A stretch of 64,000 nt of DNA, from NCBI GenBank assembly GCA_934167485.1, contig CAKPKL010000003.1, positions 7,153-71,152 on the forward strand, given 5' to 3'. The notes beneath the pieces were generated by a model. That model ran no database searches. It had not been told where the DNA came from and worked only from the letters and a program-made list of their open reading frames with translations. Shown in pieces: positions 4,653-62,136 of the stretch (position 1 is the stretch's first letter; the number at the start of each line of letters is the position of its first letter). This DNA is from an uncultured Bacilli bacterium (GTDB lineage Bacteria > Bacillota_I > Bacilli_A > RF39 > UBA660). The translations under genes were made by a program, and so were the position numbers.

Positions 4653-5273
4653 TTATTCTTTATCCTCTAATATTGGTCTAAAATTTGAATTAAACTCACT
4701 AACAATTTGTTTAAATCTAGCACACTTTTGTTCTAAATTTTTTGTTTCTAATTCAATTTTTTTATTTGTTACTTCTTTGTATTTCTCTAATTGATTTCTT
4801 TGTGAATTAATTTTTTCTTCTTCCTGGTGTAACCTATCAAGTTCCAATGCTTTATATGACTTAAATTGTTCCTGTTCTTCTTTTAATTTATCTCTTTGAA
4901 TTTCCAACTCTTTTTTTATAAGTTCTAATTCTTTCAAAGAATTATCAGTATTTATTTTAAGTTCTTCTTCTGCTCTAGTAATTCCATCTCTTTTTAACTT
5001 AAAGAATTCTTCTAATTGAAGTTTCTTTTGCGCTACTTCTTGCTTTTGAACTTCCATATAACTTTCAAATTCTTGTTTAGCTCTATTTAATCTCTCTTTT
5101 TCATCAAAAAGTTCTTGTTCCTCTTCAAGGTTCAACTTCTTTTTTTCATTTAAACTATTAATATGAGCTTTAAAACTAGTAACATCCGAACTTAACTTAT
5201 TAAATAAATTATCTAACTCATTAAGATTCACTGACTCTTCTTTTGTATCAATTTCTCTAGTATCATTAAACAT
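4653..5273 (-). CDS. coiled-coil protein of unknown function
   Basis: 206 aa, almost entirely E/K/L/Q-rich heptad repeats. Tandem with the preceding acidic coiled-coil ORF. Confidence 0.45.
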   Translation of the reverse strand: MFNDTREIDTKEESVNLNELDNLFNKLSSDVTSFKAHINSLNEKKKLNLEEEQELFDEKERLNRAKQEFESYMEVQKQEVAQKKLQLEEFFKLKRDGITRAEEELKINTDNSLKELELIKKELEIQRDKLKEEQEQFKSYKALELDRLHQEEEKINSQRNQLEKYKEVTNKKIELETKNLEQKCARFKQIVSEFNSNFRPILEDKE

Positions 5274-7654: not shown

Positions 7655-9545
7655 TTAAATATCTAAACTATAAGGACTATTTGCAGTTCCCTCTCCTCCG
7701 GTTATATAGACCATAGATGATAGAGTTATAACTGGACGAGACGCAAGCCACGTGGCCACAGCGCCGCTGCCGCCACTAATCCCGCTGCCGTACACATGCG
7801 ACACATTGACAGACGAAGAAATCCATCTGTTTGTATACCAGAAATTAATATTTAAATCATTTCCTGTATACATTTCTCCCCAACTTGGTAAGACTACATT
7901 AAGTGTCACTTCTCCATCTTCATCTAATATACTATAATCTCTTGCGTATCCACTCTGTTTTAATTTAACTGTTGTTGGTATTATCATACTCTTTGCTTTA
8001 TCACTATACCAATTATAAAAACTGTTTGTTGCATTATTTAAATAGTATGGTAAGCTCTCTCCTGTGTTAACGATGAATTCTCCTTCACCTTTCATTAAAT
8101 CAAACCTGTTATGATTTGTACATCCTCCTGTATAATAATTATCACCATTAATGTTTTCTTCTCCATATTTCTTTTCTGGTGAATACAAACAACTCGTTGA
8201 TCCTTCGCCTGAGTCTATACTATAAAATGGTATGTATATTCCAGATCTTATTGCTACTGTATCTGGTAAGTTTCTTAATACATCTGCTCTTTCTACTTTT
8301 ATACTTCCATCACTATTTATCTCTACTATTCTATATCTTACTTTTGATGTGCTTGTTTTATTACTTACTTTATTTATATATGTTTCATTTATTTCTGTTA
8401 CATATGGATTACTTGATTCATCTAAATATACATAATCTCCTACTTTTCCTAAGTTAAGCTTTGTGTTCTTATTTAAGTTTCTTTCACTACTTAATATATA
8501 TGGATTAGCTCTTGTTCCTTTGCCACTTTTTACAAGTACATTATCTTTTATGCTTATTACTGGTCTTACTCCTAATCCATATGTATTTGTACTATACTCT
8601 ATTGATAATTTACTTGAATTCTCATAATAAGTTTGCCAGTTGTTATTTGATGATGTATTGTTTGGTGTTATAAGCCAAGATAATTCATCTTCATCTAGAT
8701 ATGATCCTCCATCTTGAATTGTCATTTCATCTAAAGCATATATATAATCTTCATATGTTAATAGTCCTACTTTTTCTGTTATTTTATTTGTACAAGATGT
8801 CATTTTTGTATATGAGTCTGGGGTTACATCTACTGGATCTATACAAAACTCTGTTTCTTTAATCAAGTCTGTTCTTTCTAATCTACTATAGAAATATTCA
8901 TTTAACCATTTCTTTACCCAAGATGAGTTCCAATCGTTTGTTTCTCCATAAGCAATAGAAGTTAATGATACAGGTGATACTAACTTAATTGTATTATTTG
9001 TATCATTTGTCTCCATTACTTCCCATAGTTGACCTGAGTATAGTACATAGTTATTCATAATTGTTTGTTCATCTTTTGTTCCATACACTTTATTTACTGT
9101 ATTTCCATTTACTACTACATTTTTCTTTATATGTTTTGTATCACTTTCTATTAAACTCTTTAATGTTTTATAATCGCCTATAGAATCTCTTCCCTCATAA
9201 TAAAATATATAATCTGTATCATTCATATATACAAATACTTTTTTGTTTTCATCTTCATCTGTATTTTGTATATATCCTTTACTTTTTAATTCTCCTATTG
9301 TTATTTCACTTGGAGCTGATTCATTTTTTGTTTCATATTCTGATACTATGTAAAGTTTAGCTGCTCTTTCTATATTCTCTATACTTCTTTCTTTTGCCGC
9401 TGCTTTACTATCTGTTATTATATCTAACACTATTGGTGTAGCTATTAAAACTATAATTGCTAGTATTACTATAACAGCTAAAAGTTCTATTAGGGTAAAT
9501 CCTTTACTATAGGTTACCCCCCCCCCAGGCGTTATTTTTTCTCAT
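7655..9545 (-). CDS. large type IV pilin-like protein, phase-variable; currently frame-disrupted by a G10 tract just after the start codon
   Basis: The annotated ORF (7655..9430) lacks a signal and begins at a GTG. The same frame continues upstream through KGFTLIELLAVIVILAIIVLIATP, a class III pilin signal, to G10 (9517-9526 on +). ATG at 9545 with RBS aaGGtaGGGa. In frame only if nG is 9 or 12. Confidence 0.6.
9517..9526 (-). repeat. homopolymeric poly-G tract (10 nt) in the pilin leader codons; candidate slipped-strand phase-variation site
   Basis: Ten consecutive C on + (G on the coding strand) in a ~25% GC context. Flank aaaaataacgcct[G10]ta is shared with the two other tracts. Confidence 0.8.
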
Positions 9546-9579
9546 TCTTATCCCTACCTTCTTATTTTTAACTATATTT

Positions 9580-9608
9580 ATTATACTAAAAAAATATAGA
9601 TTAATCAA
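9580..9608 (-). promoter_or_regulatory. sigma-A-type promoter TTGATT-17-TATAAT (repeat-element copy A) driving pilin-like gene 7655..9545
   Basis: Minus strand reads ttgattaatctatatttttttagtataat. Same ~35-bp element at 23554-23582 and, inverted, at 29836-29870. Confidence 0.6.
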
Positions 9609-9612
9609 TAAC

Positions 9613-10455
9613 CTATATTTTATATTTACTATAGAATTTATCTATTTGAGATTTTTTATTTGTACTTATTTTATCTTTAAATAACTTATCATATTCATAT
9701 TTAAGAACTGTTATATGTTTTGCATCTACATCATTTGTTGGATACATTGTTATAATATCATTTGTATTTGGAACTACTACAACTTTTATAAAATTATACA
9801 AATCTCCAGCACTACTTCCTATATTTGAAACACTAAAATAATGCACTTCCAACATATCTCTTTTATTGGCTTTATTTTTATTATCTATTTGATCTCTTAC
9901 TATATTAAATAAATATTCTAAATCAATATTCTTATTAAAATAAACCTGATTATTATCTTCATTACTTGATATATGATCACTTATATGTTCTAAAGCTAGA
10001 TTTGAATCATAATTTTGTATTTGACTTTTTAACATATCACATCTATCGCCCATTTTAAAATTACAATACATTCCTAATTGTTTTTTCATAACTAATTCAG
10101 ATATAGCAAGTGAATGACCTTTTATTCCCTCTTTACCGTATAACATTGGAAGAAGTTCTAAGGCTTCATTATACATATTTAGGTGATAATATAATAAATA
10201 TAATTCTAGCATAGCATACTCATTATCTTTATATTTAATAGCTTTTGAAAGTTCATTTAACGCTTCATTATACATTTCTAATTCTCTATAAGCCTTAGCC
10301 CTCATAAGTAGTATTTTTTTACCATTATCGCAATAACTCATAAACTTTTCTGATGCTTTCAAAAAATTAGAATATTTACCAGTTTTATATAAATTAACTA
10401 ATCTTGTATAAAAATTATCGTTGATTCTTCTTTTACTAAATTCACTATTACTCAT
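9613..10455 (-). CDS. TPR-repeat-like protein
   Basis: Repeated A..Y.E/AL..L..A helical motifs (AKAYRELEMYNEALNELSKAIKY...YNEALELL). Confidence 0.45.
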   Translation of the reverse strand: MSNSEFSKRRINDNFYTRLVNLYKTGKYSNFLKASEKFMSYCDNGKKILLMRAKAYRELEMYNEALNELSKAIKYKDNEYAMLELYLLYYHLNMYNEALELLPMLYGKEGIKGHSLAISELVMKKQLGMYCNFKMGDRCDMLKSQIQNYDSNLALEHISDHISSNEDNNQVYFNKNIDLEYLFNIVRDQIDNKNKANKRDMLEVHYFSVSNIGSSAGDLYNFIKVVVVPNTNDIITMYPTNDVDAKHITVLKYEYDKLFKDKISTNKKSQIDKFYSKYKI

Positions 10456-23531: not shown

Positions 23532-23553
23532 GTTATCCTCCTATTCTAAATAA

Positions 23554-23582
23554 ATTATACTAAAAAAATATAGATTAATCAA
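23554..23582 (-). promoter_or_regulatory. sigma-A-type promoter TTGATT-17-TATAAT (repeat-element copy B)
   Basis: Minus strand ttgattaatctatatttttttagtataat, followed by aggaggataacATG of the pilin-like gene. Confidence 0.6.
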
Positions 23583-23601
23583 TAACCTATATTTTTTATT
23601 A

Positions 23602-28220: not shown

Positions 28221-29600
28221 TTAATTTAATTTGGATTTTAAAACCTCTATTACTGGACGTACTCCATGATAGTCCGAATCATCAACGGTAAAGCGGTTAT
28301 CGATCAAACCACTTAAATCTACATACCATGCATAGTTAATATCTCCAGCACTAGAAGACACACTCCAATAACCATGCATATATGATGTTGTTGTTGAATC
28401 AGCATTATTTAAACATCCATAGTCTGTACATGATATATGTGTTCTATCATATAACCATCCATATTGACATCCTGTAGTATTTCTTCCCTCTGTGCATGTA
28501 GAACTTTCTGTTGTTGTTTTACTATCAAAATAATAAAAATCTGTTGCAGTTGTCTCATCCCACTCTGTGTTTCCTGTTATTTTCGCTATTTCATTTGCTG
28601 TTATTATTCTGGCTTTATAATTATTATAATCTACTGTATAATCAGTATTTGTGTAATTTGATGGAGTCTCTGTTCCTTGCCATAAATATGTATCTGTTTT
28701 AAGTTGTGTTAATACTTCATTTGGTCCTGATGTGTTCCGTCCACTTGAGTTCCATGCAATAAGTGCTGTAGTATTATGATCTAAGATAAGATTTACTTTA
28801 TCTCCCCCATCATCATTAAATGCATAAAATTTCATACATCCACTATTTACTCCTGTATTACTTTGTGTTTCTGTATAATTTGAACACTTAGTTCCTGTAT
28901 CCACATTAAAGTATACAACCTCCCCATTTTTAAATGTTTTTATTTCTACACCATTTATTGTTATTATTACTTTGTCAGTTGCTTTTGACAATATCAACGT
29001 TCCTGTTGTTTTATCCCAGGTATATTGTGCCCCTATTACTGTTATATTATCAGGTAAATTATATCCTTCTGGTGCTTTAAAAATTAATGTTTTTGTCTCT
29101 ATATTTTTTATTTGTACTTCATTCTTACTATCACTATTTATATTTGTTAGTTTAAATTCTATATCATACAGTTTTATTTTAGACAACAAATATTCATTTT
29201 TATCTTCATCATACTTAATATAATATCCAGACATTATTAGTGTAGTATCTCCTATTACTGTTCCATCTGTTATAAATATTATTCCACTTGTTGGTTTATT
29301 ACCTTTTACATCTATCTTTATTTCTGTTTCACTACATTTATTATCTACCAATTCGTTTGAGCATATATTCCCATTATTCATGATATAATACTTTCCATTT
29401 TTTATTACTTTACCATTTAAATCTTCTAATGATATTGCTTGTTCTACTCCATTTAAATAATTTTTTACACTTATTTTTATACTTGCTTCTTTACTATTAT
29501 CTATTATATCTAGTACTATTGGTGTTGCGATTAGGGCGATTATCGCTAGTATTACGATTACTGCTAGTAATTCTATTAAAGTAAAACCTTTTCTTTTCAT
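28221..29600 (-). CDS. type IV pilin-like protein (large paralog, 459 aa)
   Basis: MKRKGFTLIELLAVIVILAIIALIATPIVLDII. C-terminal CMKFYAFNDDGGDKVNLILDHNTTA...GVRPVIEVLKSKLN. Confidence 0.75.
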   Translation of the reverse strand: MKRKGFTLIELLAVIVILAIIALIATPIVLDIIDNSKEASIKISVKNYLNGVEQAISLEDLNGKVIKNGKYYIMNNGNICSNELVDNKCSETEIKIDVKGNKPTSGIIFITDGTVIGDTTLIMSGYYIKYDEDKNEYLLSKIKLYDIEFKLTNINSDSKNEVQIKNIETKTLIFKAPEGYNLPDNITVIGAQYTWDKTTGTLILSKATDKVIITINGVEIKTFKNGEVVYFNVDTGTKCSNYTETQSNTGVNSGCMKFYAFNDDGGDKVNLILDHNTTALIAWNSSGRNTSGPNEVLTQLKTDTYLWQGTETPSNYTNTDYTVDYNNYKARIITANEIAKITGNTEWDETTATDFYYFDSKTTTESSTCTEGRNTTGCQYGWLYDRTHISCTDYGCLNNADSTTTSYMHGYWSVSSSAGDINYAWYVDLSGLIDNRFTVDDSDYHGVRPVIEVLKSKLN

Positions 29601-29643
29601 ATTATCCTCCTTCTTTATTTTACTTTTGTAAAGATACCAAAAA

Positions 29644-29688
29644 ACACAAAGAAACCTAGAGTTTTATTCTCTAGATCTTTGTGTTTAT
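29644..29688 (-). terminator. intrinsic terminator / attenuator hairpin inside the 5' leader of pilin-like gene 28221..29600
   Basis: Minus strand cacaaagatctagag-aataaaa-ctctaggtttctttgtg then ttttt. It lies between the poly-G upstream ORF and the pilin RBS. Confidence 0.5.
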
Positions 29689-29720
29689 GTATTCTAATAG
29701 TATTATAGTATAATTAGATA

Positions 29721-29730
29721 CCCCCCCCCC
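29721..29730 (-). repeat. homopolymeric poly-G tract (10 nt) inside an upstream ORF (start 29770) ahead of the pilin-like gene
   Basis: C10 on +. Flank aaaaataatgcct[G10]tatcta. Upstream ORF begins atgaagatatcattaagaaaaaacaataaaaataatgcctgg (MKISLRKNNKNNAWGGG). Confidence 0.8.
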
Positions 29731-29796
29731 AGGCATTATTTTTATTGTTTTTTCTTAATGATATCTTCATATACTACCACTACCTTTACTATATTT

Positions 29797-29825
29797 AGTA
29801 TATATTTTTATACACTATTTGTCAA
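29797..29825 (-). promoter_or_regulatory. consensus promoter TTGACA-17-TATACT for the poly-G leader and pilin transcript
   Basis: Minus strand ttgacaaatagtgtataaaaatatatact, then RBS aaaGGtaGtGG and upstream-ORF ATG at 29770. Confidence 0.55.
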
Positions 29826-29835
29826 TATTTATATT

Positions 29836-29880
29836 AAAAAAATATAGGTTATTGATTAATCTATATTTTATATAAAAGCT
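29836..29880 (+). repeat. third copy (C) of the ~35-bp pilin-promoter element, in inverted orientation and with a degenerate -10
   Basis: + strand aaaaaaatataggttattgattaatctatatttt matches copies A and B, then diverges (atataaaagc instead of tttagtataat). Points toward the 3' end of ORF 29879..30418. Confidence 0.55.
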
Positions 29881-39316: not shown

Positions 39317-39682
39317 CTTAGGAGTATATAATAAGATGACATAGTTCTAAAACCGGCTACTGTTAACACCATAAATAGCCTTCGTTTCAATACCATTTAA
39401 GATAACATAGTTCTAAAACTATCAACATTATTATTTCTATCATCTATATGTTTCAATACCATTTAAGATGACATAGTTCTAAAACATAGATATATATGTT
39501 TAATTGATTATAAATGTTTCAATACCATTTAAGATAACATAGATCTAAAACAATCAATACCGGCTTCATCCATAATTAATAGTTTCAATACCATTTAAGA
39601 TAACATAGATCTAAAACAATCAATACCGGCTTCATCCATAATTAATAGTTTCAATACCATTTAAGATAACATAGATCTAAAA
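39317..39682 (-). CRISPR. type II-A CRISPR array: 5 full 36-bp repeats plus 1 degenerate terminal repeat, 5 spacers of 30 bp (two identical), leader at 39683-39765
   Basis: Repeats at 39383-39418, 39449-39484, 39515-39550, 39581-39616, 39647-39682 (gtttcaataccatttaagat[a/g]acatag[a/t]tctaaaac). Degenerate copy at 39317-39352. Spacers 39551-39580 and 39617-39646 are identical (aatcaataccggcttcatccataattaata). Confidence 0.9.
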
Positions 39683-39765
39683 CCTCAAATCATAAATCTA
39701 TACCCATATTATCATAGAGAAAATAATATTTTATAAATGGTATTTTTCTATGTCTATTAAGTTTA

Positions 39766-40437
39766 TTATAACATGAATTCATCTAAATCTTCATCAATAA
39801 TTAACTTTTTTTCATATTCAACAGTTGTTCCATAAGTTTGTGAATCTATTAACAATAATTTTATTTCGTTATAAACGGCATATTTATAAAATTCAATTAA
39901 TTCTGTTTTATTTAAATATTGCTTTAAATTAACAAATATTAGGATATTTTTAGTATTTAATGCTTTTTCCAAATCTATTAACAATAATAGATTATCTAGT
40001 AACTCATTATTGTAGTTGATAGATAATTTAACAAGCTTTGTTAAATTATCTATTGTTACATTCTCTTCAATATTTAATGGTAAATCAATATTATTTAGTA
40101 TTCTTTTATATAATTTAATAATTTTATTATATAAGTTAAATAAATTGTTTCTATCACTCTCATCTATGTTTTCATTAACATACTTTGATAAATCATTAAT
40201 ATACTTTTTTGAATCAAATTGAAAATCAAAAAAATTTATAAATATTTTTATTTTACCATTTAAATTTTTTTCTTCATCTTTTTTGAAAAAAGAAATATTA
40301 TCTGAATATCCAATATTATATATAGAATATAAGTCATTAACAAAACGATAAAAGTAATTTTTGTTTTCTATTTCTATAACATTAACACTATTTTTTAAAT
40401 CAATAGTATTATCTATATAATTAACCTTCATATTCAT
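39766..40437 (-). CDS. csn2: Csn2 (type II-A CRISPR-associated)
   Basis: About 220 aa, Lys/Asn-rich, last gene of cas9-cas1-cas2 before the array (II-A synteny). 4-nt overlap with cas2. Confidence 0.7.
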   Translation of the reverse strand: MNMKVNYIDNTIDLKNSVNVIEIENKNYFYRFVNDLYSIYNIGYSDNISFFKKDEEKNLNGKIKIFINFFDFQFDSKKYINDLSKYVNENIDESDRNNLFNLYNKIIKLYKRILNNIDLPLNIEENVTIDNLTKLVKLSINYNNELLDNLLLLIDLEKALNTKNILIFVNLKQYLNKTELIEFYKYAVYNEIKLLLIDSQTYGTTVEYEKKLIIDEDLDEFML

Positions 40438-40754
40438 AATATAATCAATCTATCCTCACTATTAACTATTTTAGTGTTACTTTCTCCTATTATATTTTCT
40501 ATTTGTGAATATTGTTTTTCTGTAACAGTTAACACTTGTATTAATCCTTTTTTAGGAGCATTTTTTCTAAGTCTTTCAACTAATATATTGGATTGCTGAG
40601 AATTAAGGACAAGTTTAGAGTAAACAGATTCTTGCATCATAATAAAACCTTCACTCAATAAATATTTTCTAAACTTTAGATAATTTCTTTTATCTATTGC
40701 ATAAATATTTGGTAAATCAAAAAACACCATTGTTCTCATAACTCTATCCCTCAT
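40434..40754 (-). CDS. cas2: Cas2 (true start probably MRTMVFF, about 40736)
   Basis: MVFFDLP...[27 protein letters not shown]...LTVTEKQYS matches type II Cas2. Confidence 0.85.
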   Translation of the reverse strand: [106 protein letters not shown]

Positions 40755-41616
40755 AATAAATAAATTCCTTATACCTATTTATATCGTTTATAGAATCTAA
40801 TGTATTCTTAACAAAAAATTTTATTATATCTTTTAAAGTGTAATTCTTTCCAAGATATTTATATGTATTGTTAAATATGTTTACTATATCTAATTTATAA
40901 TTGGTATCTAATTCTCTATCTTGATTATAATATACAAAATTATCAATAATTACTCTAAATGGTTCCATTAAATCACAAGTTAGATTAAATTCATTAAATT
41001 CATTTTTATGGTGTATTCCAAGTTGTGTTAAATAACCATTACTTACAACTTCTTTATTAACTGTAGAAAGCAAAATAGCATAACCATAATTAAGAGCTGC
41101 GTTAATATTGTCTTGATGATTTCTAACAAAGTGCATTCCATATAATGCGTTAAAATATACTTTTGCAGAATGACCTTCTCTATTAGTTTTATCGCCTGGC
41201 ACTACATCATCAACATAACTTAAAACAAGTTTATATTTATCTGAGTTAATTTTTTTCAAAAGACTAGCTTGATTAAGTATTTTATTTTTTACAATTTTTT
41301 CCCATAACAAATCTTTTTTAGACACTTTCCAAGATATTTGCTCTTTTATTTTCTTACTAGTATTGTGTCGTGAATAATAAGAAGATAGTTCTCCAAATGG
41401 ATTATGTTTATCATCACAAAAAATAATATTTATTTTATTATCTGACAATTCTTTTAAGAGATAAGCAGAAATAGATACAGATATTGAATCTACAATTATT
41501 GTATCTATTTCTGATAAATGAATATATTTTTCATCATTGTCTTGTTTTACAACTAAAAACCTATTCTTATAATTTATCTTTGATTGTCTAGTAATTACAA
41601 CTGTTCTAAAACTCAT
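40744..41616 (-). CDS. cas1: Cas1 integrase
   Basis: MSFRTVVITRQSKINYKNRFLVVKQ...HLSEIDTII...IIFCDDKHNP...EGHSAKVYFN...MEPFR match type II-A Cas1. Confidence 0.9.
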   Translation of the reverse strand: MSFRTVVITRQSKINYKNRFLVVKQDNDEKYIHLSEIDTIIVDSISVSISAYLLKELSDNKINIIFCDDKHNPFGELSSYYSRHNTSKKIKEQISWKVSKKDLLWEKIVKNKILNQASLLKKINSDKYKLVLSYVDDVVPGDKTNREGHSAKVYFNALYGMHFVRNHQDNINAALNYGYAILLSTVNKEVVSNGYLTQLGIHHKNEFNEFNLTCDLMEPFRVIIDNFVYYNQDRELDTNYKLDIVNIFNNTYKYLGKNYTLKDIIKFFVKNTLDSINDINRYKEFIYYEG

Positions 41617-44600
41617 ACGTAGTTTCCTTTATACCAGTTACTGATTGATTATAAACTATAGCGTGTTCTATAATCCTATTACATTTCTTTCCAAAAGCCA
41701 TAGAATAGTTTTTATCTAAAAATTTTAAATTGGCATTTATACTATTACACCTTAATAACCCTAATAGTTGAATTACTAACATTTCTTTATTTTCTAAAGT
41801 ACAATTAATATTATCATCTATAATTTGTCTTAATTGTTCTGCTAAATTATTGTATAGTTTATAAGTTGTAGCTATTTTATTATAAATAGCTTCTATTAAT
41901 GACTTAATATTCTGCTCATAACTTACATCATCTATAGCATTTTTCTTTTTATTCAATAAACGATTTAGAGTATTTTTGTATTTTATCATGTCTGATTTAT
42001 TAATAGATAATTCTAACGAATTACAAACTTCAACTTTATCTGTTGCACCAACCAAACTACATATTTGTTCATTCCAATCCAACTTAGTAAAGAAAGGAAT
42101 AGGTTTAGAAATTATTTTATAATTATCATTATCTTCTAATGATAATAAATTTTTAATATATTGTTCTTTTAATAATTCATTTTTAACTTTATCTATATAA
42201 ATAGGTATTCCTATCATCTTTTGCGATTCTTTTCCATTTTTAGTAAATCTTACAACAATAGCATAAGATGGGTTTAAACTTGTATATGACCCATATAATT
42301 TAGTAGGCATATTACCTTTTAATGGTACTCCACTTTGTCCTTTTTTATTCTTTGTTTGATTATATAACTCACCTGTTTTTATTTCTGTTTTTTTACTTAT
42401 AAGAATATCATTTCTATAATAAGTATTTTCTATATTTCTGTTAAATTCAGAAGCCTCAAACAATACTTCTCCAGTTTTCTGATCAACTAAGTTTCCAGTA
42501 ATTTTATTAACAACATCACTTAATTCATTATCTAATGAATTAATAACAAAACCATAGTTTAGTTTTTTATAATCTTTCATTTTTATTAAATATGCATTTA
42601 TTTCTTTTACCATATCATAATTTAAATTTTTCTTCATGAATTTTTCTTTATATTCACCTAGTACTGCAGTTAAATATGCATCAAAAGCATGATGATAATC
42701 ATTTAAATCTCTAAATTTATATAATTCATATCTTTCTCTATAATTATGAGATAAATTAGCTTTTAAATAAACAATTTTGGTATCATATAAATTCTTTATT
42801 ATGTTGGCTACATGTTTTGTTATTTGTCTAGTTTCAACTAATTGTCTATTAATAAATCCCTGAATATCTTCATCTTTATATGCTTTTCTTGTTAATCTAT
42901 AAAACTTTTTAGCTGACATAAGATTTATTTTTTTTAAATGTTCCCACCATCTTATCATATTTGTCGTCCTATAGTTTTCTGGTAACACTAATTTATCTTT
43001 TTTATTTTGATTATAATCTCTATAAACAAGTGCTTTATTATCAATTGAATCATCCTTAATCAAACTTTGAGGTAATATATGATCAACCTCTACACTATTT
43101 GTTTTTAAGTCTTCTATATTAATTGATTTACCAGAATATAAACATTTTCCTTCTTGAATGAAATACAAAAATAATTTTACAGAATCTATCTTTTCTTGTT
43201 GTTTTAATTCTTTTTCTATTTTTAGTAAATTACCATTATATTCATCTACATTTTTCTTGGCTTCTGCATATATTTTTTCTAGATATTTCTTTCTATCATC
43301 TCTACGCTCTTTTTTGCCATCTTCTCTTGCCATTTCTATCATAACAGTTTTAGGTTTATATCCCATTATTTTTATTATCTCGTCAACAACTTTTAATGAT
43401 TGATATATTCCCCTTTTTATTGCTGGAGAAGTTGCTAAATTTTCTACTAATGAATAATTTAATTTAATATTTCCACTTACATTATTCTCTTCATTAATTT
43501 TATCTTGAAATTTATATTTATCATTATTTATTATTTGAATAAAATTCTCTTCTGTTTCATACATTAAATCTATAATTGATTTATTGATACCACTTTTTTC
43601 ATCTTTATAATAAATATCTTTTAATAGTTTTCTTGATAGTTCTCCCCATCCACTATATTTTTTATTAATTATTTTGTTTATTTGACTATCATTTAATTCA
43701 ACATATTTATTTCTAACTTTTTTCTCTAATATATCTTTATCATCAAAAATAGTTATCCATTCTATTATTTCATCAGCAGCTTCTTCATTATAAGAAGTTC
43801 CAACAAATATTCCATCATCTCCATAAAAATCGATATATGATTGCATATTATTAGCAAACTTACCATCCGCAGAATAACCGGTAACATTAATATCATTTTC
43901 AAACATTTCAAAATCTTTTGAAGAATGAATATATTCTTTGAATTTTTTATCAGTAATTGAACCTCTAGTTTTCATAAATAAATCAGTAAGTATTTTGTTT
44001 TGAATATCATTATCTATTTTATTTCCATTTATTTTAATTTGTTTTAATTCGTTCAATACTTTAAATTTACAATAAAGTATGGAATTATTAGCTAAAGCGT
44101 CTTCTTTTAATAAATAAGTACATTTTGATGTCATTCTTTTTATAAATTTCTCTGCCGTTGTTTCTTTATCAATTACTTCATCAAAGTTATAAGGTGTTAT
44201 TTTAACATTATCTTTTCTTTCTAACCATGCAAACTTACTTTTTTTATTTAATGGACCAATATAGTATGGAATTTTAAATTCTAATAATTTTGTAATTTTA
44301 TATTCATCATTTACTTTATCTAATAAAAACGGATAATATTTACCTTGATTTTCTATTATTTTAATTAATTCATTCATATTTATTTGATAAGGATATTTCC
44401 CATTTTCAGAATTAGTAATTCTAGGCAAAAACTCACTATTTTCTAATCTTAATTTATTTTGATTATATTTTTCTATTAAAGATACATTTGTAATCTTATC
44501 AAATAATTCAGGAAAATAACTATCTAATTTCTTTTTAAATTCATCTACTGTTATTTTATTGTGTATATACTGTTCATATATGCAAATATATTCTTTATCT

Positions 44601-45670
44601 TTCTTAGTAGCTTTCTTACTTCTAAACATTTCATTATATTTTTTTCTATTATAATTGAACATTTCCTTCAATAATTTTAAATCCCTTTGATGTTCTTCAT
44701 ATTTATCTGTCATTAAATAAGAAATACTTATATAATTACGTCCTTTAAATATTTTTTTTAGAAAAACCATATCATATAATTCTTTTAATAGCTCTAAAGT
44801 ACTTAACTCATCACCTAATAATTTTTCTAAGTCATCATATTTATCATCAAAATCTGTACCACTAAAACTAATAGATATTTTATTTTCACTATCAATTGCA
44901 AATAAATCTTTAACAACAAATTTACCACCTGTTATTAATTTTCCAAATTCACTAGCAAATTTTTTATTTTCTGAAATATCATATAATTCTTTTTTTAAAT
45001 TTACTTTAATATCATTTTTAGATTTATCCATTATTATATTTTTTAATTCTTCATAATCAATTTGATTTAAAATATCTTCAGAAATATTAAGCCTGCTAAC
45101 AGTTTCTGATAGTTCTCTAAATACATCTTTTAATTTACCAACTAAATTTAAATCATTTGCATTGAATTTACCATTATATAAAAAGTTTCCTCTGTATTTA
45201 ATAATATGATGTATTGCTAAATATACTAATCTTATATCTTCTTTAGAATCATCATCAATTAATCTTTTTCTCAAATGATAAATAGTTTTATATTTTTCAT
45301 TATATTCTCTTATCTTAGCTTTTTCATCAGTGCTAAGAAAAATTGTTTTATTTATACTATCCTTTTCATGATATTTAGATTCTTGTAATTTTTGAAAAAA
45401 ATTAGGATCTACTTTATTTATTTCACCTTTAAATTCTTCTTGAAGTAATCTAATTCTCTCTCGTCTTCTAGCATATCTACGTCTAGTACTACGAAATCCT
45501 CTTCTTCCTTCAGCGGTATTTGCAGTATCAAAAAGTCTTACTCCCCATAAAGCTTTTCTGTTTTTTCCTGTACCTTTTCTAATTATTTTTTGAGTTTTAT
45601 CTTCTACTACTGCCCAACCTACAGAAGTAGTTCCTATATCTAAACCTATATTATAATTTTTCTTTTCCAT
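41606..45670 (-). CDS. cas9: Cas9 endonuclease (type II-A); start taken at MEKKNYNIGLD with RBS ttGGAGGtttgtcaaATG
   Basis: RuvC-I IGLDIGTTSVGWAVV, HNH VDHILPQSLIKDDSIDNKAL, arginine-rich bridge helix RRRYARRRERIRLL. About 1354 aa. Confidence 0.9.
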   Translation of the reverse strand: MEKKNYNIGLDIGTTSVGWAVVEDKTQKIIRKGTGKNRKALWGVRLFDTANTAEGRRGFRSTRRRYARRRERIRLLQEEFKGEINKVDPNFFQKLQESKYHEKDSINKTIFLSTDEKAKIREYNEKYKTIYHLRKRLIDDDSKEDIRLVYLAIHHIIKYRGNFLYNGKFNANDLNLVGKLKDVFRELSETVSRLNISEDILNQIDYEELKNIIMDKSKNDIKVNLKKELYDISENKKFASEFGKLITGGKFVVKDLFAIDSENKISISFSGTDFDDKYDDLEKLLGDELSTLELLKELYDMVFLKKIFKGRNYISISYLMTDKYEEHQRDLKLLKEMFNYNRKKYNEMFRSKKATKKDKEYICIYEQYIHNKITVDEFKKKLDSYFPELFDKITNVSLIEKYNQNKLRLENSEFLPRITNSENGKYPYQINMNELIKIIENQGKYYPFLLDKVNDEYKITKLLEFKIPYYIGPLNKKSKFAWLERKDNVKITPYNFDEVIDKETTAEKFIKRMTSKCTYLLKEDALANNSILYCKFKVLNELKQIKINGNKIDNDIQNKILTDLFMKTRGSITDKKFKEYIHSSKDFEMFENDINVTGYSADGKFANNMQSYIDFYGDDGIFVGTSYNEEAADEIIEWITIFDDKDILEKKVRNKYVELNDSQINKIINKKYSGWGELSRKLLKDIYYKDEKSGINKSIIDLMYETEENFIQIINNDKYKFQDKINEENNVSGNIKLNYSLVENLATSPAIKRGIYQSLKVVDEIIKIMGYKPKTVMIEMAREDGKKERRDDRKKYLEKIYAEAKKNVDEYNGNLLKIEKELKQQEKIDSVKLFLYFIQEGKCLYSGKSINIEDLKTNSVEVDHILPQSLIKDDSIDNKALVYRDYNQNKKDKLVLPENYRTTNMIRWWEHLKKINLMSAKKFYRLTRKAYKDEDIQGFINRQLVETRQITKHVANIIKNLYDTKIVYLKANLSHNYRERYELYKFRDLNDYHHAFDAYLTAVLGEYKEKFMKKNLNYDMVKEINAYLIKMKDYKKLNYGFVINSLDNELSDVVNKITGNLVDQKTGEVLFEASEFNRNIENTYYRNDILISKKTEIKTGELYNQTKNKKGQSGVPLKGNMPTKLYGSYTSLNPSYAIVVRFTKNGKESQKMIGIPIYIDKVKNELLKEQYIKNLLSLEDNDNYKIISKPIPFFTKLDWNEQICSLVGATDKVEVCNSLELSINKSDMIKYKNTLNRLLNKKKNAIDDVSYEQNIKSLIEAIYNKIATTYKLYNNLAEQLRQIIDDNINCTLENKEMLVIQLLGLLRCNSINANLKFLDKNYSMAFGKKCNRIIEHAIVYNQSVTGIKETTYEF

Positions 45671-45699
45671 TTGACAAACCTCCAATTTTTTGGTATTAT

Positions 45700-45801
45700 T
45701 AAATTGTCTTAATACCATTTAAGATGACATAGAGAGTTAAAATAAAGCTTTTAAGCCTAAATGCTCACTAAGTGTTCGAACGGTTAGCCGTTCTTTTTTT
45801 T
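45700..45801 (+). ncRNA. tracrRNA candidate, divergent from cas9
   Basis: Anti-repeat cttaataccatttaagatgacatag pairs with crRNA repeat 5'-GUUUUAGAACUAUGUCAUCUUAAAUGGUAUU. Followed by agaGUUAAAAUAAagc (S. pyogenes-like nexus) and hairpin gaacgg-ttag-ccgttc + T8 terminator. Confidence 0.6.
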
Positions 45802-45924: not shown

Positions 45925-47157
45925 TTAAATTTTCATCTTTCTTATTTTATTTACTTCAATAAGTAAAAATAACATCGCTAAAAAGCACACACAACTAAGA
46001 ACTAAAACTATAGATAGATATTTATCTTTTTCTTTCATTAATTTATCAATCATATAAGTATTATATCTTTGTACTGAATTTTCTTCTACATCATACAAAT
46101 AATAACCCTCATGACCTGTCATAGTATTAGTCGCATATATTAAATAATAATCATCTAAATCTTCTACTTTATATGCGGTTACTTCTTCTCCATTTATTTT
46201 AATTTTTTTCTTAGTATAGGAACTTTTCTTATCTTCATGAATATATAAATTCATTCTATTAAACTCATACTCTTTATATATACTGTATTTATCAGTTTTT
46301 GAATCATATGCATACAAACCTATATCCCCATCACTATTTTTTAATCCAACTAAAGTTATCTTTGTAACTTCATTATATAAAGTAGGAATATCGAAATCTG
46401 ATATCTTTACAGTATCTTCTTTATAACCATCTTTTGTACCAATCAATTCTCTTTTTTTGATGACTCTATACTTCTTACCATTTATTTCTACCTCAATAGG
46501 ATCTTTTTCTTCCATATTAGCTGTAATCTTATATGTCTTTTCATTTCCATTTTGAGCTATTACAACAATATTTATAGTATTAACGCCTTCACTTACTTGT
46601 ACCTCTCCTGCACCTTTTATAGATGCACTATTATGTTCAGCTACTGCTTTAACATTAATTTTTTCAGTTCCAGGAATAAGCTCTATAGTATATTCCAATG
46701 TATCCTTATTAAAAGCTGTGTTTAATTCATATCCATCAACACTTAAGCTTTTTAAATTATTATTACTACTATATGTTTTATTTATTTCAATTGGTTTTGT
46801 TGTACTCTTTTTTATAACATTAATTGTAATAGAACGACTTCCAGTAAATTCATTACCATCGCCATCTGAAACCTCTGTAGCATTTACAGTTATGGTAGCA
46901 CTCCCTACTTGATTAGCTGTAAAATATAAATCGACTGATGAATTTTCTAACCATTTTGAATCACCACCAGCAAGTACATTACCATTTGATGACGTTATAT
47001 CAAATCTACCAGTTAATCCACTTGCTTCAACTGTAACTTTAACACTATTTCCTACATAAACAGTAGTATTTGCATTTATACTAAAAGCATCTACTTTATT
47101 TACTCCTATAAAAATAGTTAACAAAAGTAAAAATAATATATATTTTATTTTTTTCAC
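45925..47157 (-). CDS. cell-surface protein with signal peptide, Ig/cadherin-like beta-sandwich repeats and C-terminal TM anchor
   Basis: MKKIKYILFLLLLTIFIGVNKVDA signal. LKSLSVDGYELNTAFNKDTLEYTI cadherin-like beta-sandwich motif. C-terminal hydrophobic segment then KIRKMKI. Confidence 0.5.
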   Translation of the reverse strand: MKKIKYILFLLLLTIFIGVNKVDAFSINANTTVYVGNSVKVTVEASGLTGRFDITSSNGNVLAGGDSKWLENSSVDLYFTANQVGSATITVNATEVSDGDGNEFTGSRSITINVIKKSTTKPIEINKTYSSNNNLKSLSVDGYELNTAFNKDTLEYTIELIPGTEKINVKAVAEHNSASIKGAGEVQVSEGVNTINIVVIAQNGNEKTYKITANMEEKDPIEVEINGKKYRVIKKRELIGTKDGYKEDTVKISDFDIPTLYNEVTKITLVGLKNSDGDIGLYAYDSKTDKYSIYKEYEFNRMNLYIHEDKKSSYTKKKIKINGEEVTAYKVEDLDDYYLIYATNTMTGHEGYYLYDVEENSVQRYNTYMIDKLMKEKDKYLSIVLVLSCVCFLAMLFLLIEVNKIRKMKI

Positions 47158-47167
47158 AATTTACCTC

Positions 47168-49249
47168 CTATTGATTGATTGTTCCAGCACCCATAATCAT
47201 ATTTTTTATTTTTACATAATCTGTTGCTTTTACTTGACCATTATGATCAACATCAGCAGCTTCTAAATATGCACCTGACAATGTAATACTTCCCATTATT
47301 TTATTTTTAATTAAAACATAATCTGTTGCTTTTATCTTTCCATCGCCATTTACATCACCATAAATAACTATTTCATACTCTTTAGTTTCTGAACCAATTG
47401 TAATAATTACTTTATCACCGGTTGCGACAACACCAGATTGTTTATCTTGATTTAATTTATTTCTCAAACTTACAACTGCATTTGAATTAGCATTTGTAAT
47501 TCTTGTTCTAATAGCTGATATATCACTTCCTACATTAAATCCACTTAAATATTTATCATTATTTTTAATACCAGCATTATTTAAAGTGGTTGTAACATCT
47601 ATTGGATCATCTATCTTTGTACCTGTTAATATAAAGTTTATTTTATAATATTTAATATCTCCATTTTGAGCTGTTACTTTAAGAGTTTTAGATGTGTTTT
47701 CATTTATATCAAATGTTCCTAATCCACTAATTGTTGCAGATCCATTTACTGGTTTTGCTTCTATTTTAACCTTAGGAGTATTAATATCTACATAATAATT
47801 ATATTCTTCAATATCACCATCAAAATCCGCAACTTTCTTATCATTAATAACTATTTCACTTAAATAATTATTTGGCCATCCACTTCTTACACTTGCATCT
47901 GGAAGTGCGGTAGATGCAGGCATATCACGATATACAGGAATAAAGAAAACATAACTTAAATCAAGTAATCCATTTTCATAATAAGCTCTATATGTAGAAT
48001 GTCCCTCTGTTGATGGAGCTGATATATCTTGCATATATTGATGAGTGTAATTAGCATGATTTGGAGTCTTTCCGCTTCTTACTAAATAGTTATAAACTAC
48101 ATCAAACTTTTTAAAATACCCTGTATCTTGGCCATAAGATAGATAATTCTTTTTAATCCATTTTGCTCCACCTACTATAGCCCTATATTGAGTATTCCAT
48201 GGCTTTAATACATCTTCTTCTGTACCTGCAGCAAAATCAAGTCCTCTATACACAGGGTTTGATCCACTAGTAGCACCTATATTATAAAAGTTATACATAC
48301 CATTATATTGTCCATTAATTGCAGTACCAGGAGTAGCTCCATTTGAAACTTCTCCTTTAGATAAAGACGCTAAATATATAGGACATACACCACTTTGTTT
48401 ACCAGCCTCTAAAAATGTATCAGTAAAACTTGCTAAATAATCTGAACCAAATATACTTTTAATACTTTCTTTCATTTTATCATCACTGGAACTTGTGTCA
48501 TATGCCAAAGACTTAAATTGAAAAATATACATATCTCTTAGAAAATTTCTAGGATCCAAATAATAAGATATTGTTTGAGTGTTTATTCTATACCAAGGAT
48601 CACTACCTGTTACATCATCAAAAGCAATATAATAATCATCCTTGTAATTAAATGAACTAGGTCCTACTTCTAGATAAGCATAATTATTTGACATACTTCT
48701 TCTAAGTAAACTTCTAGAACCATACCACTCATTTTGTACCACTTCTTCAAAAGTTAATTCAGTATCTATAGCAACGAAATTCCAGTTAGGATGAGCACTT
48801 TTTAAGAAAGCTAAATTATCCCAATAACTCTCAGGAAAACCAGCATTTTTAAATTGATTTTTTAAATAATCATTAAGAAGTGAATCCTTCTTTAAATTAG
48901 CATTACAAAAATATCCTTCATAAGTCTTTCCTACACTATCGAAATAAAATGTAGCCTTAACATAGTAATCACTACATAAATTAGTATCTTTGGTTGCTAC
49001 CTGTTCTCCATTTTCTATTATAGTTACTACATCACCAGTATCAAGAGCATACAATCCACTCGATACAGAATTTAAATTTTTATCTTTATAAAAACAAGAT
49101 GAACCATTATAAACTTTTCCATTTATTGGGCATTTAGTATTAGCCGGATTCATAACAGTTGCTTTATAATCAGCTTGTACATGATCTATAAATAAAAGAG
49201 ATGATATAACAAAAGTAACAATAAATAAATATTTATATGCCATTTTCAT
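47168..49249 (-). CDS. secreted glycoside/peptidoglycan-hydrolase-like protein with C-terminal dockerin-type repeats
   Basis: Signal peptide. Central domain (YLDPRNF...). C-terminal paired Ca-binding repeats DVNGDGKIKATDYVLIKN...DVDHNGQVKATDYVKIKN typical of dockerin type I. Confidence 0.5.
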   Translation of the reverse strand: MKMAYKYLFIVTFVISSLLFIDHVQADYKATVMNPANTKCPINGKVYNGSSCFYKDKNLNSVSSGLYALDTGDVVTIIENGEQVATKDTNLCSDYYVKATFYFDSVGKTYEGYFCNANLKKDSLLNDYLKNQFKNAGFPESYWDNLAFLKSAHPNWNFVAIDTELTFEEVVQNEWYGSRSLLRRSMSNNYAYLEVGPSSFNYKDDYYIAFDDVTGSDPWYRINTQTISYYLDPRNFLRDMYIFQFKSLAYDTSSSDDKMKESIKSIFGSDYLASFTDTFLEAGKQSGVCPIYLASLSKGEVSNGATPGTAINGQYNGMYNFYNIGATSGSNPVYRGLDFAAGTEEDVLKPWNTQYRAIVGGAKWIKKNYLSYGQDTGYFKKFDVVYNYLVRSGKTPNHANYTHQYMQDISAPSTEGHSTYRAYYENGLLDLSYVFFIPVYRDMPASTALPDASVRSGWPNNYLSEIVINDKKVADFDGDIEEYNYYVDINTPKVKIEAKPVNGSATISGLGTFDINENTSKTLKVTAQNGDIKYYKINFILTGTKIDDPIDVTTTLNNAGIKNNDKYLSGFNVGSDISAIRTRITNANSNAVVSLRNKLNQDKQSGVVATGDKVIITIGSETKEYEIVIYGDVNGDGKIKATDYVLIKNKIMGSITLSGAYLEAADVDHNGQVKATDYVKIKNMIMGAGTINQ

Positions 49250-51882: not shown

Positions 51883-53343
51883 TCATTTTAAATAATTAAT
51901 AGTGGCACTAGTAAATGGAGTATTACTGTCACCTACAGTTATTTTATCAAATTCTTCTTTAGTACCATTATAGTTCACTGTTGTAAGTCCTGTATTTTTA
52001 AACGCTTTAGCATCTATCGCTTTGACATTTGTAGAAAGAGTTATTTCTTTTAGTGTTGAAACTGCTATAAATAGGCTATATGGTATACGTTCTACTTCTT
52101 TACCCACTATTACAGAACTTAATCCAGTCCCTTTAAATACTGATCTTGAAGATGTTCCTTCTTGTGTTACCTTCCATCCAGGTTCACAATTTTTAGCATT
52201 ATAATATACTTTTTTTAATTTGTCACATTTCCAGAAAACATTCCATCCCATTGATTTAATATTCTCTGGGATTACTATTTCTTCAAAATTTAATGTTCCA
52301 AAATAATTATAAAATAAATAATGTGGTAGACTTTCTACGTTTTCCCCTATTACAACTTTCTCTATTGGATTCTTCCAAAATATTGAATATACAATACCTT
52401 TTTCTGTATCTCGATAACTAGAAGAATCAACAGATATTGCATTATAGTATAATTCTTTTAATTTAAAATTACATCCTACAGCAGATCTTCCTAAATATAT
52501 AACATTCTCTGGTATTGTTACACTTCTAAGTCCTCCATAACTTATTGATAAATTTCCCATATAAGTAAGTGTTTGAGGTAATATTACTCTTTCTAATGCA
52601 TACAATCCTTCAAATGCACAGTTATCTATTTTCTCTATTCCACTAGAAATTATTATCGTTTTTATCGTTTCATTGAAATTTATAAGATCACTTGCATCTT
52701 CAAGTGTATCAAACGTACCTAAAACAGTATAAACCTTATGTTCTTCACTTATCTTACTTGTATCTACATTTGGTACTCCTACTGCATATACCTCATAATC
52801 ATTTACTTTTCCTGGTACCATAAGCACCGTATCATTACCTGTATACTCTATTAACTGTATTTTGCCTGTTTCTAATACTATATATTTCCAATCTCCTACT
52901 TTGTATACTGTTGTTCCATTTTCTTCTATTGTTTCTTCTGTACCTGTTATACTGTACTCTATATCCTCATTTTCTTTTAATTTATATTTTTTATTATTTG
53001 CATATATATACTTTACTCCATCTAATGTAAGTTTATATGATTCCACTCCATTATCTCCAAATACTATAAAATCATCATATCCTGTTGGTGTTTTTCCTTT
53101 TATACCTATTCCTATTTCTTTTAACTCATCTAGTGAATAACTATTGTTTGCAACATCACCATTCATTTCTTTTTTTGATATTGTTAATTCAGCTGCTCTT
53201 ACATAATTATTTATACTTTGTTCATTACTTGAATTTTTACTATCCTTTATTATATCTAATACTATTGGAGTAGCTATAAGTGCGATTATTGCGAGTATTA
53301 CAATTACCGCTAAAAGCTCTATTAATGTAAATCCTTTTTTCAT
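51883..53343 (-). CDS. type IV pilin-like protein fused to a leucine-rich-repeat (BspA-type LRR) adhesin-like domain; could be extended to 53426 as a leader fusion if the G tract becomes 12
   Basis: MKKGFTLIELLAVIVILAIIALIATPIVLDII start (annotated ORF begins 21 nt upstream at MNRKRKN). C-terminal 250 aa show repeating ...I.E.VISIG..AF..C..L..V.. units typical of TpLRR/BspA repeats. Confidence 0.7.
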   Translation of the reverse strand: MKKGFTLIELLAVIVILAIIALIATPIVLDIIKDSKNSSNEQSINNYVRAAELTISKKEMNGDVANNSYSLDELKEIGIGIKGKTPTGYDDFIVFGDNGVESYKLTLDGVKYIYANNKKYKLKENEDIEYSITGTEETIEENGTTVYKVGDWKYIVLETGKIQLIEYTGNDTVLMVPGKVNDYEVYAVGVPNVDTSKISEEHKVYTVLGTFDTLEDASDLINFNETIKTIIISSGIEKIDNCAFEGLYALERVILPQTLTYMGNLSISYGGLRSVTIPENVIYLGRSAVGCNFKLKELYYNAISVDSSSYRDTEKGIVYSIFWKNPIEKVVIGENVESLPHYLFYNYFGTLNFEEIVIPENIKSMGWNVFWKCDKLKKVYYNAKNCEPGWKVTQEGTSSRSVFKGTGLSSVIVGKEVERIPYSLFIAVSTLKEITLSTNVKAIDAKAFKNTGLTTVNYNGTKEEFDKITVGDSNTPFTSATINYLK

Positions 53344-53396
53344 ATTTTTCCTCTTTCTATTCATACTTCCGAGTAAGGTTATTGTATAACTAGATA

Positions 53397-53407
53397 CCCC
53401 CCCCCCC
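53397..53407 (-). repeat. homopolymeric poly-G tract (11 nt) in a leader ORF (ATG 53426) upstream of the pilin-LRR gene
   Basis: C11 on +. Flank aaaaataacacct[G11]tatcta. ATG AAT AAA AAT AAC ACC TGG-G11 (MNKNNTWGGG). Confidence 0.8.
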
Positions 53408-53460
53408 AGGTGTTATTTTTATTCATATTTTTTACCTACTTTCTTATACTAACTATCCTA

Positions 53461-53489
53461 ATTATATAAAAAGATTGAACTATTGTCAA
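53461..53489 (-). promoter_or_regulatory. consensus promoter TTGACA-17-TATAAT for the leader and pilin-LRR transcript
   Basis: Minus strand ttgacaatagttcaatctttttatataat, then RBS aaGtAGGt and ATG at 53426. Confidence 0.55.
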
Positions 53490-59648: not shown

Positions 59649-59743
59649 AAATATCCCTACTCTATCTTGAAATTATTACAACATTATTATATAATATATT
59701 TAGGATAAAATCTAGTCCTGAAAGTTATAAAAAGGGTGATAAA

Positions 59744-61336: not shown

Positions 61337-61364
61337 ACTTATTTTTTTATAAAAAAAACAATAT

Positions 61365-62132: not shown

Positions 62133-62136
62133 AAAA

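Follow-up and report, generated by a model that had tools for sequence, protein, structure and literature searches.

A 64,000-nt stretch of contig CAKPKL010000003.1, from an uncultured Bacilli bacterium of the RF39 lineage (hereafter, the window), carries on its minus strand a gene for a large, modular type IV pilin in which a run of exactly ten guanines separates the start codon from the body of the open reading frame (ORF), a position at which any change in tract length that is not a multiple of three shifts the frame. The gene and its leader, designated here as locus A, very probably undergo slipped-strand translational phase variation, with the sequenced genome holding the pilin in the OFF state. 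This reading was put forward in an initial annotation of the stretch, and it is supported both by the frame logic of the locus and by differences in tract length among near-identical genomes. At the level of sequence, locus A has the properties of a contingency locus.

In the proposed mechanism, the G10 run would act as a hypermutable homopolymer within the part of the gene that encodes the prepilin leader peptide. Transcription would proceed from a sigma-70-type promoter at 9608-9580 and translation from the ATG at 9545. With 9 or 12 G, the ribosome would read MRKNNAWGG(G)VTYSKG/FTLIELL... (the slash marks the predicted cleavage site), yielding a prepilin of 629/630 aa that the window's own prepilin peptidase (PilD) could cleave after the glycine and that its PilB/PilC machinery could display on a pilus. 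Tracts of 8, 10, or 11 G would end translation within a few codons, no canonical start in the pilin frame would be met before the helix had been passed, and the adhesin would be absent. Slipped-strand mispairing at replication would alter the tract by one or two G, resulting in a heritable and reversible on/off switch; the slippage rate, the reversibility, and the effect on expression are matters that we infer from the sequence. The same unit is envisaged as a portable cassette placed before many large surface proteins of the lineage, each of which would be switched independently.

The anatomy of locus A can be read directly from the minus strand. A sigma-70-type promoter is predicted at 9580..9608 (TTGATT, 17 nt, TATAAT; 10/12 matches), and a weak Shine-Dalgarno sequence (SD; GGTAGGG) together with the ATG at 9545-9543 occupies 9543..9558, the stretch directly 5' of the ATG reading aaGGTAGGGataaga. 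This ATG starts the leader and, if in frame, the prepilin. Across the start, the strand reads aaggtagggataaga-ATG AGA AAA AAT AAC GCC T-G10-taacc tat agt aaa gga ttt acc cta ata gaa, and the homopolymer, the predicted slippage-prone switch, lies at 9517..9526 (OFF at 10 G, ON at 9 or 12). The modular pilin reading frame spans 7655..9541, being open from 9541 to a stop at 7655-7657, and its codons run TAT (9511-9509), AGT, AAA, GGA (9502-9500; Gly -1), and TTT (9499-9497; Phe +1), with prepilin cleavage predicted between the last two. With 10 G, the frame of the ATG reads MRKNNAWGGGNL over 12 codons and then stops at the TAG at 9510-9508. On its 5' side, the pilin frame of the same allele is bounded by a TGA at 9544-9542, overlapping the ATG, and from 9541 to 9430 it offers no ATG, GTG, or TTG start; the only listed ORF in that frame (7655..9430, 591 aa) begins at the GTG at 9430, 3' of the codons for the hydrophobic helix. 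Removal of one G in silico gives MRKNNAWGGVTYSKGFTLIELL..., a 629-aa product that begins MRKNNAWGGVTYSKGFTLIELLAVIVIL..., and either 9 or 12 G produces a prepilin of 629/630 aa from the ATG at 9545. Frame decides the outcome at locus A because only the upstream ATG can supply the leader peptide. The leader is fused to the pilin and has no terminator-like site, so it does not have the makeup of an attenuator.

Most of the particulars in the initial annotation were borne out by this reading: the same letters were read, with exactly 10 G at 9526-9517, the sole in-frame start is indeed an internal GTG past the helix that would yield a protein lacking the signal peptide, and translation confirms that the ATG at 9545 joins the pilin frame at 9 or 12 G. 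One detail was mistaken. A TAA had been placed immediately upstream in the pilin frame, but the TAG and TAA at 9510-9505 belong to the frame of the ATG; the conclusion that the gene is OFF at 10 G is unchanged by this correction.

A tract of this kind lies far beyond chance expectation. The window has a GC content of 25%, and its G/C runs have lengths of 1, 2, 3, 4, and 5 nt, followed by 10, 10, and 11 nt, with none of 6-9 nt. No G10 run arose in 100 dinucleotide-preserving shuffles of the window, and this result, together with the jump in run length from 5 to 10, excludes chance as the source of a tract that also exceeds the length at which slippage is expected (about 8-9 or more G/C). The three long G runs, at locus A and at two further loci designated B and C, are all on the minus, coding strand within the common motif AAAAATAAYRCCT-Gn-TAWCYTA, and each is found 3' of a good sigma-70-type promoter and 5' of a gene with a prepilin N terminus. 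Likewise, in 311 kb of related DNA, all 30 of the 30 G/C runs of at least 7 nt fall within such leaders, and the tract flanks are conserved at the nucleotide level.

That the tract is part of a repeated leader cassette, present also at 29.7 kb (locus B) and 53.4 kb (locus C), had been overlooked in the initial annotation. Three cassette architectures can be distinguished. Type A is fused to the pilin, type B consists of an upstream ORF (uORF), a terminator, and the pilin gene, and type C has a uORF that is readable into the pilin; direct frameshifting of the pilin is one of several uses of the poly-G cassette. In alignments, the SD and ATG of locus A are kept in every type A and type C leader, the type A leader is without a 48-nt segment that is present in type C, and the promoter region of locus A is conserved before its paralogues and before a leaderless pilin gene at 23531. 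Read tails of poly-G, as generated by two-colour sequencing chemistry, were considered as a source of the tracts and rejected, given that the tracts are internal, 8-12 nt long, and set in one conserved motif across studies and assemblers.

The protein encoded at locus A had been called pilin-like, and several features agree with that description. It carries the Pfam domains N_methyl (E 8e-7) and DUF6273, and its N terminus, ...YSKG/FTLIELLAVIVIL, has the form of a class III signal peptide, with a basic leader ending in glycine, a hydrophobic helix, and Glu5. In an AlphaFold (AF2) model built with 107 homologues (pLDDT 91.5, pTM 0.88), the long N-terminal pilin helix (alpha-1) is placed at residues 18-69; the protein also has a domain resembling part of the T. 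ramosa immunoglobulin A (IgA) protease and a C-terminal lectin-fold domain. The window encodes the accompanying machinery as well, including two small minor pilin-like genes (58685-59648, minus strand; N_methyl), a PilB-type assembly ATPase (59744-61336, plus strand; Pfam T2SSE), the prepilin peptidase PilD (61365-62132, minus strand; Pfam Peptidase_A24), and a PilC-type platform protein (62137-63897, minus strand; Pfam T2SSF). As judged from sequence and model, the product of locus A is a modular type IV pilin, and the machinery predicted to process and present it is encoded in the same window. Unlike the machinery cluster at 58685-63897, the large pilin genes lie dispersed between genes of housekeeping function (PriA, Obg, Maf, FtsW).

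Comparison of related assemblies, which had been suggested as a check on the phase-variation reading, shows that tract length varies among close genomes while the flanks are conserved, as recorded in consensus assemblies of which some have low coverage. The repaired 629-aa protein has a 100% identical database entry (P0001), and the contig that carries it (L030; ENA ERZ27287023) matches the window at 99.94% identity across 5,057 nt, with 2 substitutions and a single indel, namely G9 in place of G10; the gene is there intact at 629 aa. Another contig (L036) is 100% identical to the window and has G10. At locus B, four near-identical contigs have G10 (L031, L032, L033, and L035) and one has G12 (L034), the latter being 99.91% identical to the window with the tract as its sole indel. 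Other copies of the type A leader, located at other chromosomal sites and in other samples, have G8 (L038), G9 (L044), G10 (L046 and L047), or G11 (L039 and L045), with L038 and L039 being 98% identical to one another, and G9 is found in the type C leaders of L040 and L041. Gene calls follow the same pattern. Truncated calls stand behind out-of-frame tracts in all three of the cases looked up (P0031, G11; P0036, G10; P0042, G10), four intact proteins (P0001, P0006, P0014, and P0017) read WGGV and hence correspond to G9, and about a dozen of the 45 closest homologues are called as N-terminally truncated proteins without a signal peptide.

It could be argued that the true tract has 9 G, that the gene is intact, and that the length differences are homopolymer miscalls. 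Illumina consensus is unreliable at G runs of at least 9, the near-identical L030 does have G9, several contigs end at or beside the tract, and some variant contigs are of very low coverage (2.7x for L034, and 2.3x for L052, in which the tract is interrupted). Nonetheless, L036 repeats the G10 of the window, independent studies and assemblers recorded out-of-frame lengths (8, 10, and 11 G) at further paralogous loci, and the dozen or so truncated calls in the family point in the same direction; the contig breaks are equally explained by the leader being a multi-copy repeat. A miscall at this one tract is conceivable but would still leave a hypermutable run at a frame-critical position; an artefact is considered very unlikely. 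The same breaks were examined as a possible sign of within-sample heterogeneity in tract length, and this use of them was rejected as ambiguous since the leader and the N-terminal coding region together form a multi-copy repeat.

Even less probable, to the point of being hard to credit, is that the gene is a decaying pseudogene, i.e., a redundant pilin paralogue that is permanently frameshifted and in which the G run has no role of its own. As this explanation would have it, the window's copy is out of frame and paralogues are numerous in the family. However, its 1,887-nt frame is open in DNA of 25% GC, where base composition predicts a stop at roughly every tenth codon, and an intact form exists in a near-identical strain. 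Moreover, many loci and a distant relative have retained the tract, with G/C runs found nowhere else, which indicates selection for the tract itself.

A frame switch, unlike a fixed sequence signal, should give rise to alleles that are ON at different tract lengths, and such alleles are found. For example, a syntenic orthologue with 97.7% nucleotide identity (L049/L050) is ON at G10 through one base fewer downstream, and its exact protein is present on 10 contigs. In L053, a longer type B leader is fused to the pilin and is in frame at G10. A further allele, L048, has no clean tract: its type C leader has lost 9 nt in frame (aacaGGGtatc), and its internal SD is weakened. At that one chromosomal site, L046 and L048 are 96.5% identical, the former with a type A leader at G10 and the latter with the tract-less, in-frame type C leader; judging from this contrast in sequence, leaders are exchanged or remodelled between strains, probably by recombination between paralogues, whose N-terminal coding regions are nearly identical.

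The same alleles bear on a further alternative, in which poly-G serves mainly as an RNA- or DNA-level element in cis (whether by mimicking an SD and pausing ribosomes, by pausing RNA polymerase or making it slip, or as a protein-binding site whose length tunes transcription) and the frame is secondary. In support of this view, the leaders of loci B and C hold the tract separately from the pilin, which starts at an ATG of its own, the sequences flanking the tract show nucleotide conservation, and a similar tract sits in a promoter spacer in a Bacilli genome from goat gut (L005). Against this, locus A has no start other than the upstream ATG from which the signal peptide could be made, the in-frame length differs among alleles (G9 or G10) with each ORF still reaching the pilin, and the tract-less L048 has an in-frame deletion of 9 nt. 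Furthermore, no known RNA family from Rfam was detected in the window (gathering-threshold scan) or in leader B (E-value scan), and no notable or stable RNA fold is predicted for leaders A and C. A primarily cis-acting role for the tract is therefore rated as decidedly unlikely, and translational frame switching is retained as the explanation for locus A.

The goat-duodenum copy merits mention in its own right. In this unrelated metagenome-assembled genome (L005, 3560-3640), a G9 tract with similar flanks occupies the TTGACA/TATACT spacer of a non-pilin gene, an arrangement that, as read from its sequence, is that of promoter-spacing phase variation. A second promoter with the tract as its spacer was also considered for the loci of the window and was rejected, as the -35 element would fall inside the G run.

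At locus B, the cassette is organized differently. A promoter is predicted at 29797..29825 on the minus strand (TTGACA, 17 nt, TATACT; 11/12 matches), followed on the same strand by a uORF at 29714..29770 that contains the second tract (G10, 29721-29730) and reads MKISLRKNNKNNAWGGGI up to its stop at G10, an intrinsic terminator at 29636..29685 between the uORF and the pilin gene (-19.1 kcal/mol, z -5.1, U6 tail), and pilin-like gene B (28221..29600; 459 aa; N_methyl), which has its own strong SD, a perfect AAGGAGG, and an ATG at 29600. Counted from the end of the tract, the uORF stop falls at +4 with G10, at +15 with G11, and at +47 to +49 with G9 or G12, whereas the 5' arm of the hairpin begins at +35. 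The leader-ORF stop is thus frame-dependent, being either far upstream of the hairpin or, as the TAG of the G9/G12 frame, inside its 5' arm. The chance of a frame being open that far is about 0.19, and support for attenuation at this locus is accordingly architectural rather than statistical. In L042, a 1-nt difference shifts the uORF stop to +53, which is still within the hairpin. We infer from this anatomy, in a layout that matches the pil1 switch of Streptococcus gallolyticus, that tract length at locus B most likely sets how far the ribosome reaches and hence whether the terminator forms.

The predicted minimum free energy fold of leader B, in which the SD region of the uORF pairs with sequence 3' of the tract, was dropped as a candidate regulatory structure, as the available copies are too alike for covariation; the sole informative variant, in L006, is not clearly compensatory. 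The leader in L006 (1760-4111), a related genome, is of interest for another reason: it is a type B leader (G8) followed by a terminator, and it precedes a gene for a membrane-anchored, clostripain-family Peptidase_C11 protein, which means that the cassette is not restricted to pilins. It is one of at least five type B leaders, with tracts of G8, G10, G10, G11, and G11, in a single GTDB representative genome; this genome is labelled as Bacteroidaceae and has a GC content of 25%, and the label is probably wrong.

Locus C provides the third architecture. Its promoter, at 53461..53489 on the minus strand, matches the consensus at 12/12 positions (TTGACA, 17 nt, TATAAT). The uORF at 53379..53426 contains the third tract (G11, 53397-53407) and at that length reads MNKNNTWGGGYLVIQ and stops, and pilin-like gene C, with N_methyl and BspA-type leucine-rich repeats, lies at 51883..53343, also on the minus strand, with its ATG at 53343. 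No database record was found for this exact protein. At 9 or 12 G, the uORF is in frame into pilin C. A purine-rich stretch and the pilin ATG at 53343 lie about 60 nt 3' of the leader ORF, and this internal "SD" may be no more than a product of Arg and Lys codons within a long leader peptide. L048, in which an in-frame leader without a tract is combined with a degraded internal SD, suggests that the upstream ATG of the type C leader is a real start.

The design extends beyond close relatives. In L051 (31% GC, 45% protein identity), two pilin genes are preceded by another leader sequence of the same design, in which an SD and ATG plus a second ATG, overlapping the first in another frame, precede a G9 run (4900-5060 and 9910-10080). 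On the basis of this sequence, two of the three tract-length classes could allow translation, one with and one without a good SD, and the leader could act as a three-level switch.

Several points weigh against phase variation at locus A and against its extension to the other loci. All comparisons are between consensus metagenome assemblies, in which homopolymeric G runs are error-prone, and coverage is low in the G12 contig L034 (2.7x) and in L052 (2.3x). The two G10 contigs that are 100% identical to the window (L036 and L032) may share its sample and are not independent of it. The SD of the upstream ATG at locus A is weak. Pilins B and C have ATGs of their own, which rules out simple frameshifting of the pilin at those loci, and neither a terminator nor a strong structure was found at locus C. 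Finally, some expression could leak through in the OFF state if RNA polymerase or ribosomes slip on the G10 run.

This last point can be taken further, in that the G10 allele may be low rather than OFF, with transcriptional slippage or ribosomal frameshifting giving constant low expression. Long homopolymers promote RNA polymerase slippage, a shifting glycine tRNA would meet GGG again in either direction, and a tip adhesin is needed only in small amounts. Constant low expression leaves the DNA-level differences in tract length unexplained, and as a replacement for switching it is unlikely; leaky expression can, however, coexist with switching at the DNA level.

A second source of variation appears to act at the other end of the locus A product. 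Residues about 575-599 of the 629 aa (7751..7822, minus strand) form a GC-rich, A-poor region, resembling the variable region of a diversity-generating retroelement (DGR), within the C-terminal domain that is modelled with a C-type-lectin fold, so that a variable region is carried near the C terminus by a predicted fold of the C-type-lectin/formylglycine-generating-enzyme type. The GC content of this patch is 0.5-0.64, relative to 0.25 for the window; in homologues sharing 75-90% identity overall, the patch varies strongly and its flanks are invariant. Among four paralogues, differences fall almost entirely at positions 1 and 2 of NNY codons that are separated by invariant, A-free codons. Among these four, the pattern fits well with the signature expected of adenine mutagenesis from AAY codons of a putative template. 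In the syntenic orthologue L049, the position of the patch is filled by ordinary AT-rich sequence. No second copy of the region that could serve as a template repeat was found in the window or in loci L001-L044 (blastn-short), no reverse transcriptase domain was detected among the larger ORFs of the window scanned with Pfam, and a viral_contigs pattern scan for the variable region returned no match. Diversification of the lectin-fold tip by DGR activity, as it appears from these codon patterns, is a strong lead rather than a demonstration. A template, if present, would resemble the variable region with A at the variable positions, i.e., TGGATTTCTTCGTCTGTC AAT GTGTCG AAT GTG AAC AAC AAC GGG....

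Taken together, these loci invite a broader proposal, in which one poly-G cassette would serve three mechanisms in one genome (frame control, a leader-peptide/terminator attenuator, and in-frame extension), independently switching the members of a modular type IV pilin family along with at least one surface protease, with some of the lectin-fold tips hypermutated by a DGR in trans. We offer this proposal tentatively and regard it, as a whole, as somewhat doubtful. The mechanism at locus A is itself well known, and it is the organism and the gene family that are new; the wider context, comprising one cassette, three architectures, and possible DGR coupling, is more novel and only partly established.

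Phase variation by homopolymer slippage is textbook material for Neisseria, Campylobacter, and Helicobacter. In the pilC gene of Neisseria, the tract is said to lie in the signal-peptide-coding region, as reportedly described by Jonsson and colleagues in 1991. Locus A resembles pilC of N. gonorrhoeae and N. meningitidis in that the ORF of a pilus adhesin contains about 9 or more consecutive G, changes in whose number shift the frame, and the genic G(9-20) tract of pilC within the Neisseria phasome is an experimentally proven precedent (PMC5953494). There are also clear differences. PilC is not a pilin, has a Sec signal peptide, and belongs to a Gram-negative pathogen, whereas the locus A tract is in a class III (prepilin) leader, in a low-GC gut Firmicute, and within a cassette common to many genes.

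For locus B, the closest parallel is pil1 of S. gallolyticus, whose leader ORF contains GCAGA repeats, the copy number of which determines whether a translating ribosome gets as far as a terminator and melts it (Danne et al. 2014, PMC3894217). Both have, in order, a promoter, an SD, a leader ORF with a slippage-prone repeat, a terminator, an SD, and a pilus gene, and the terminator energies are alike (-19.1 kcal/mol at locus B versus -18.7 for pil1). The leader stop lies 29 and 18 nt upstream of the hairpin at locus B, compared to 39 bp in pil1, while another frame stops inside the hairpin. Unlike pil1, with its GCAGA x 22, the repeat at locus B is a G homopolymer, and unlike the sortase pilus operon of pil1, type B leaders precede type IV pilins and, once, a C11 peptidase. 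Locus A, which has no terminator, is not of the pil1 type. By its layout, locus B would represent a second, independent natural example of an attenuator based on a repeat within a leader peptide.

The locus A protein is similar to PilB of Streptococcus sanguinis (PMC8179133) in that a class III signal peptide and alpha-1 helix are fused to large C-terminal adhesive modules in a Gram-positive bacterium, a likeness of layout with no sequence or fold relation of the modules shown. Unlike S. sanguinis PilB, the locus A protein has DUF6273, IgA-protease-like, and lectin-fold domains, as well as poly-G control. For the variable tip, the closest known systems are DGR variable proteins with a C-type-lectin fold, namely Treponema denticola TvpA (2y3c) and the Lcl-type DUF1566 domain of Legionella (8q4e); the locus A system differs in that neither the window nor the loci retrieved yielded a template repeat or a reverse transcriptase. 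In the literature searched, which was incomplete, no description was found of type IV pilins that phase-vary through poly-G in Gram-positive bacteria, Gram-positive gut commensals included, nor of a DGR-diversified type IV pilin. A paper on a TANB77 pilin (PMC11680825) does not mention phase variation and could not be tied to the lineage studied here.

A whole family of large pilus adhesins, in a lineage known only from metagenomes, appears to be under poly-G control. Independent switching, together with DGR-type tips, would point to strong, fluctuating selection on pilus binding or recognition, with host glycans, IgA, and phages as examples of what may be involved. If the broader proposal is true, an uncultured human-gut Firmicute would combine combinatorial ON/OFF control with targeted hypervariation of its pilus adhesins. 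A practical consequence follows from the truncated gene calls, which mean that pangenomes and functional profiles of the lineage misreport these genes. The closest copies of these loci are from human-gut metagenomes (Hadza and Nepal), and sporulation genes are present on related contigs.

Additional features of the window deserve brief mention. A conserved 55-nt box is found at 9572-9626, 23546-23600, and 29820-29874, where it overlaps the -35 region of three pilin promoters. The box holds an imperfect palindrome, ATAGGTTATTGATTAATCTAT, that is inverted at the third site, and it may, from its sequence, be an operator for a shared regulator.

Elsewhere, at 39379-45718, a short array resembling clustered regularly interspaced short palindromic repeats (CRISPR), with 36-nt repeats, is found beside ORFs of 223, 106, 290, and 1370 aa in a layout that suggests a type II-A CRISPR-Cas system; the assignments of csn2, cas2, cas1, and cas9 are guesses from ORF size and order. 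Within the array, the adjacent repeat-spacer units at 39511-39576 and 39577-39642 are 97% identical, indicating that one spacer has been duplicated. Finally, just 3' of the putative cas9, at 45925-49249, are genes for two large proteins with a cadherin-like domain and a type I dockerin domain, the latter being unexpected in such a context.

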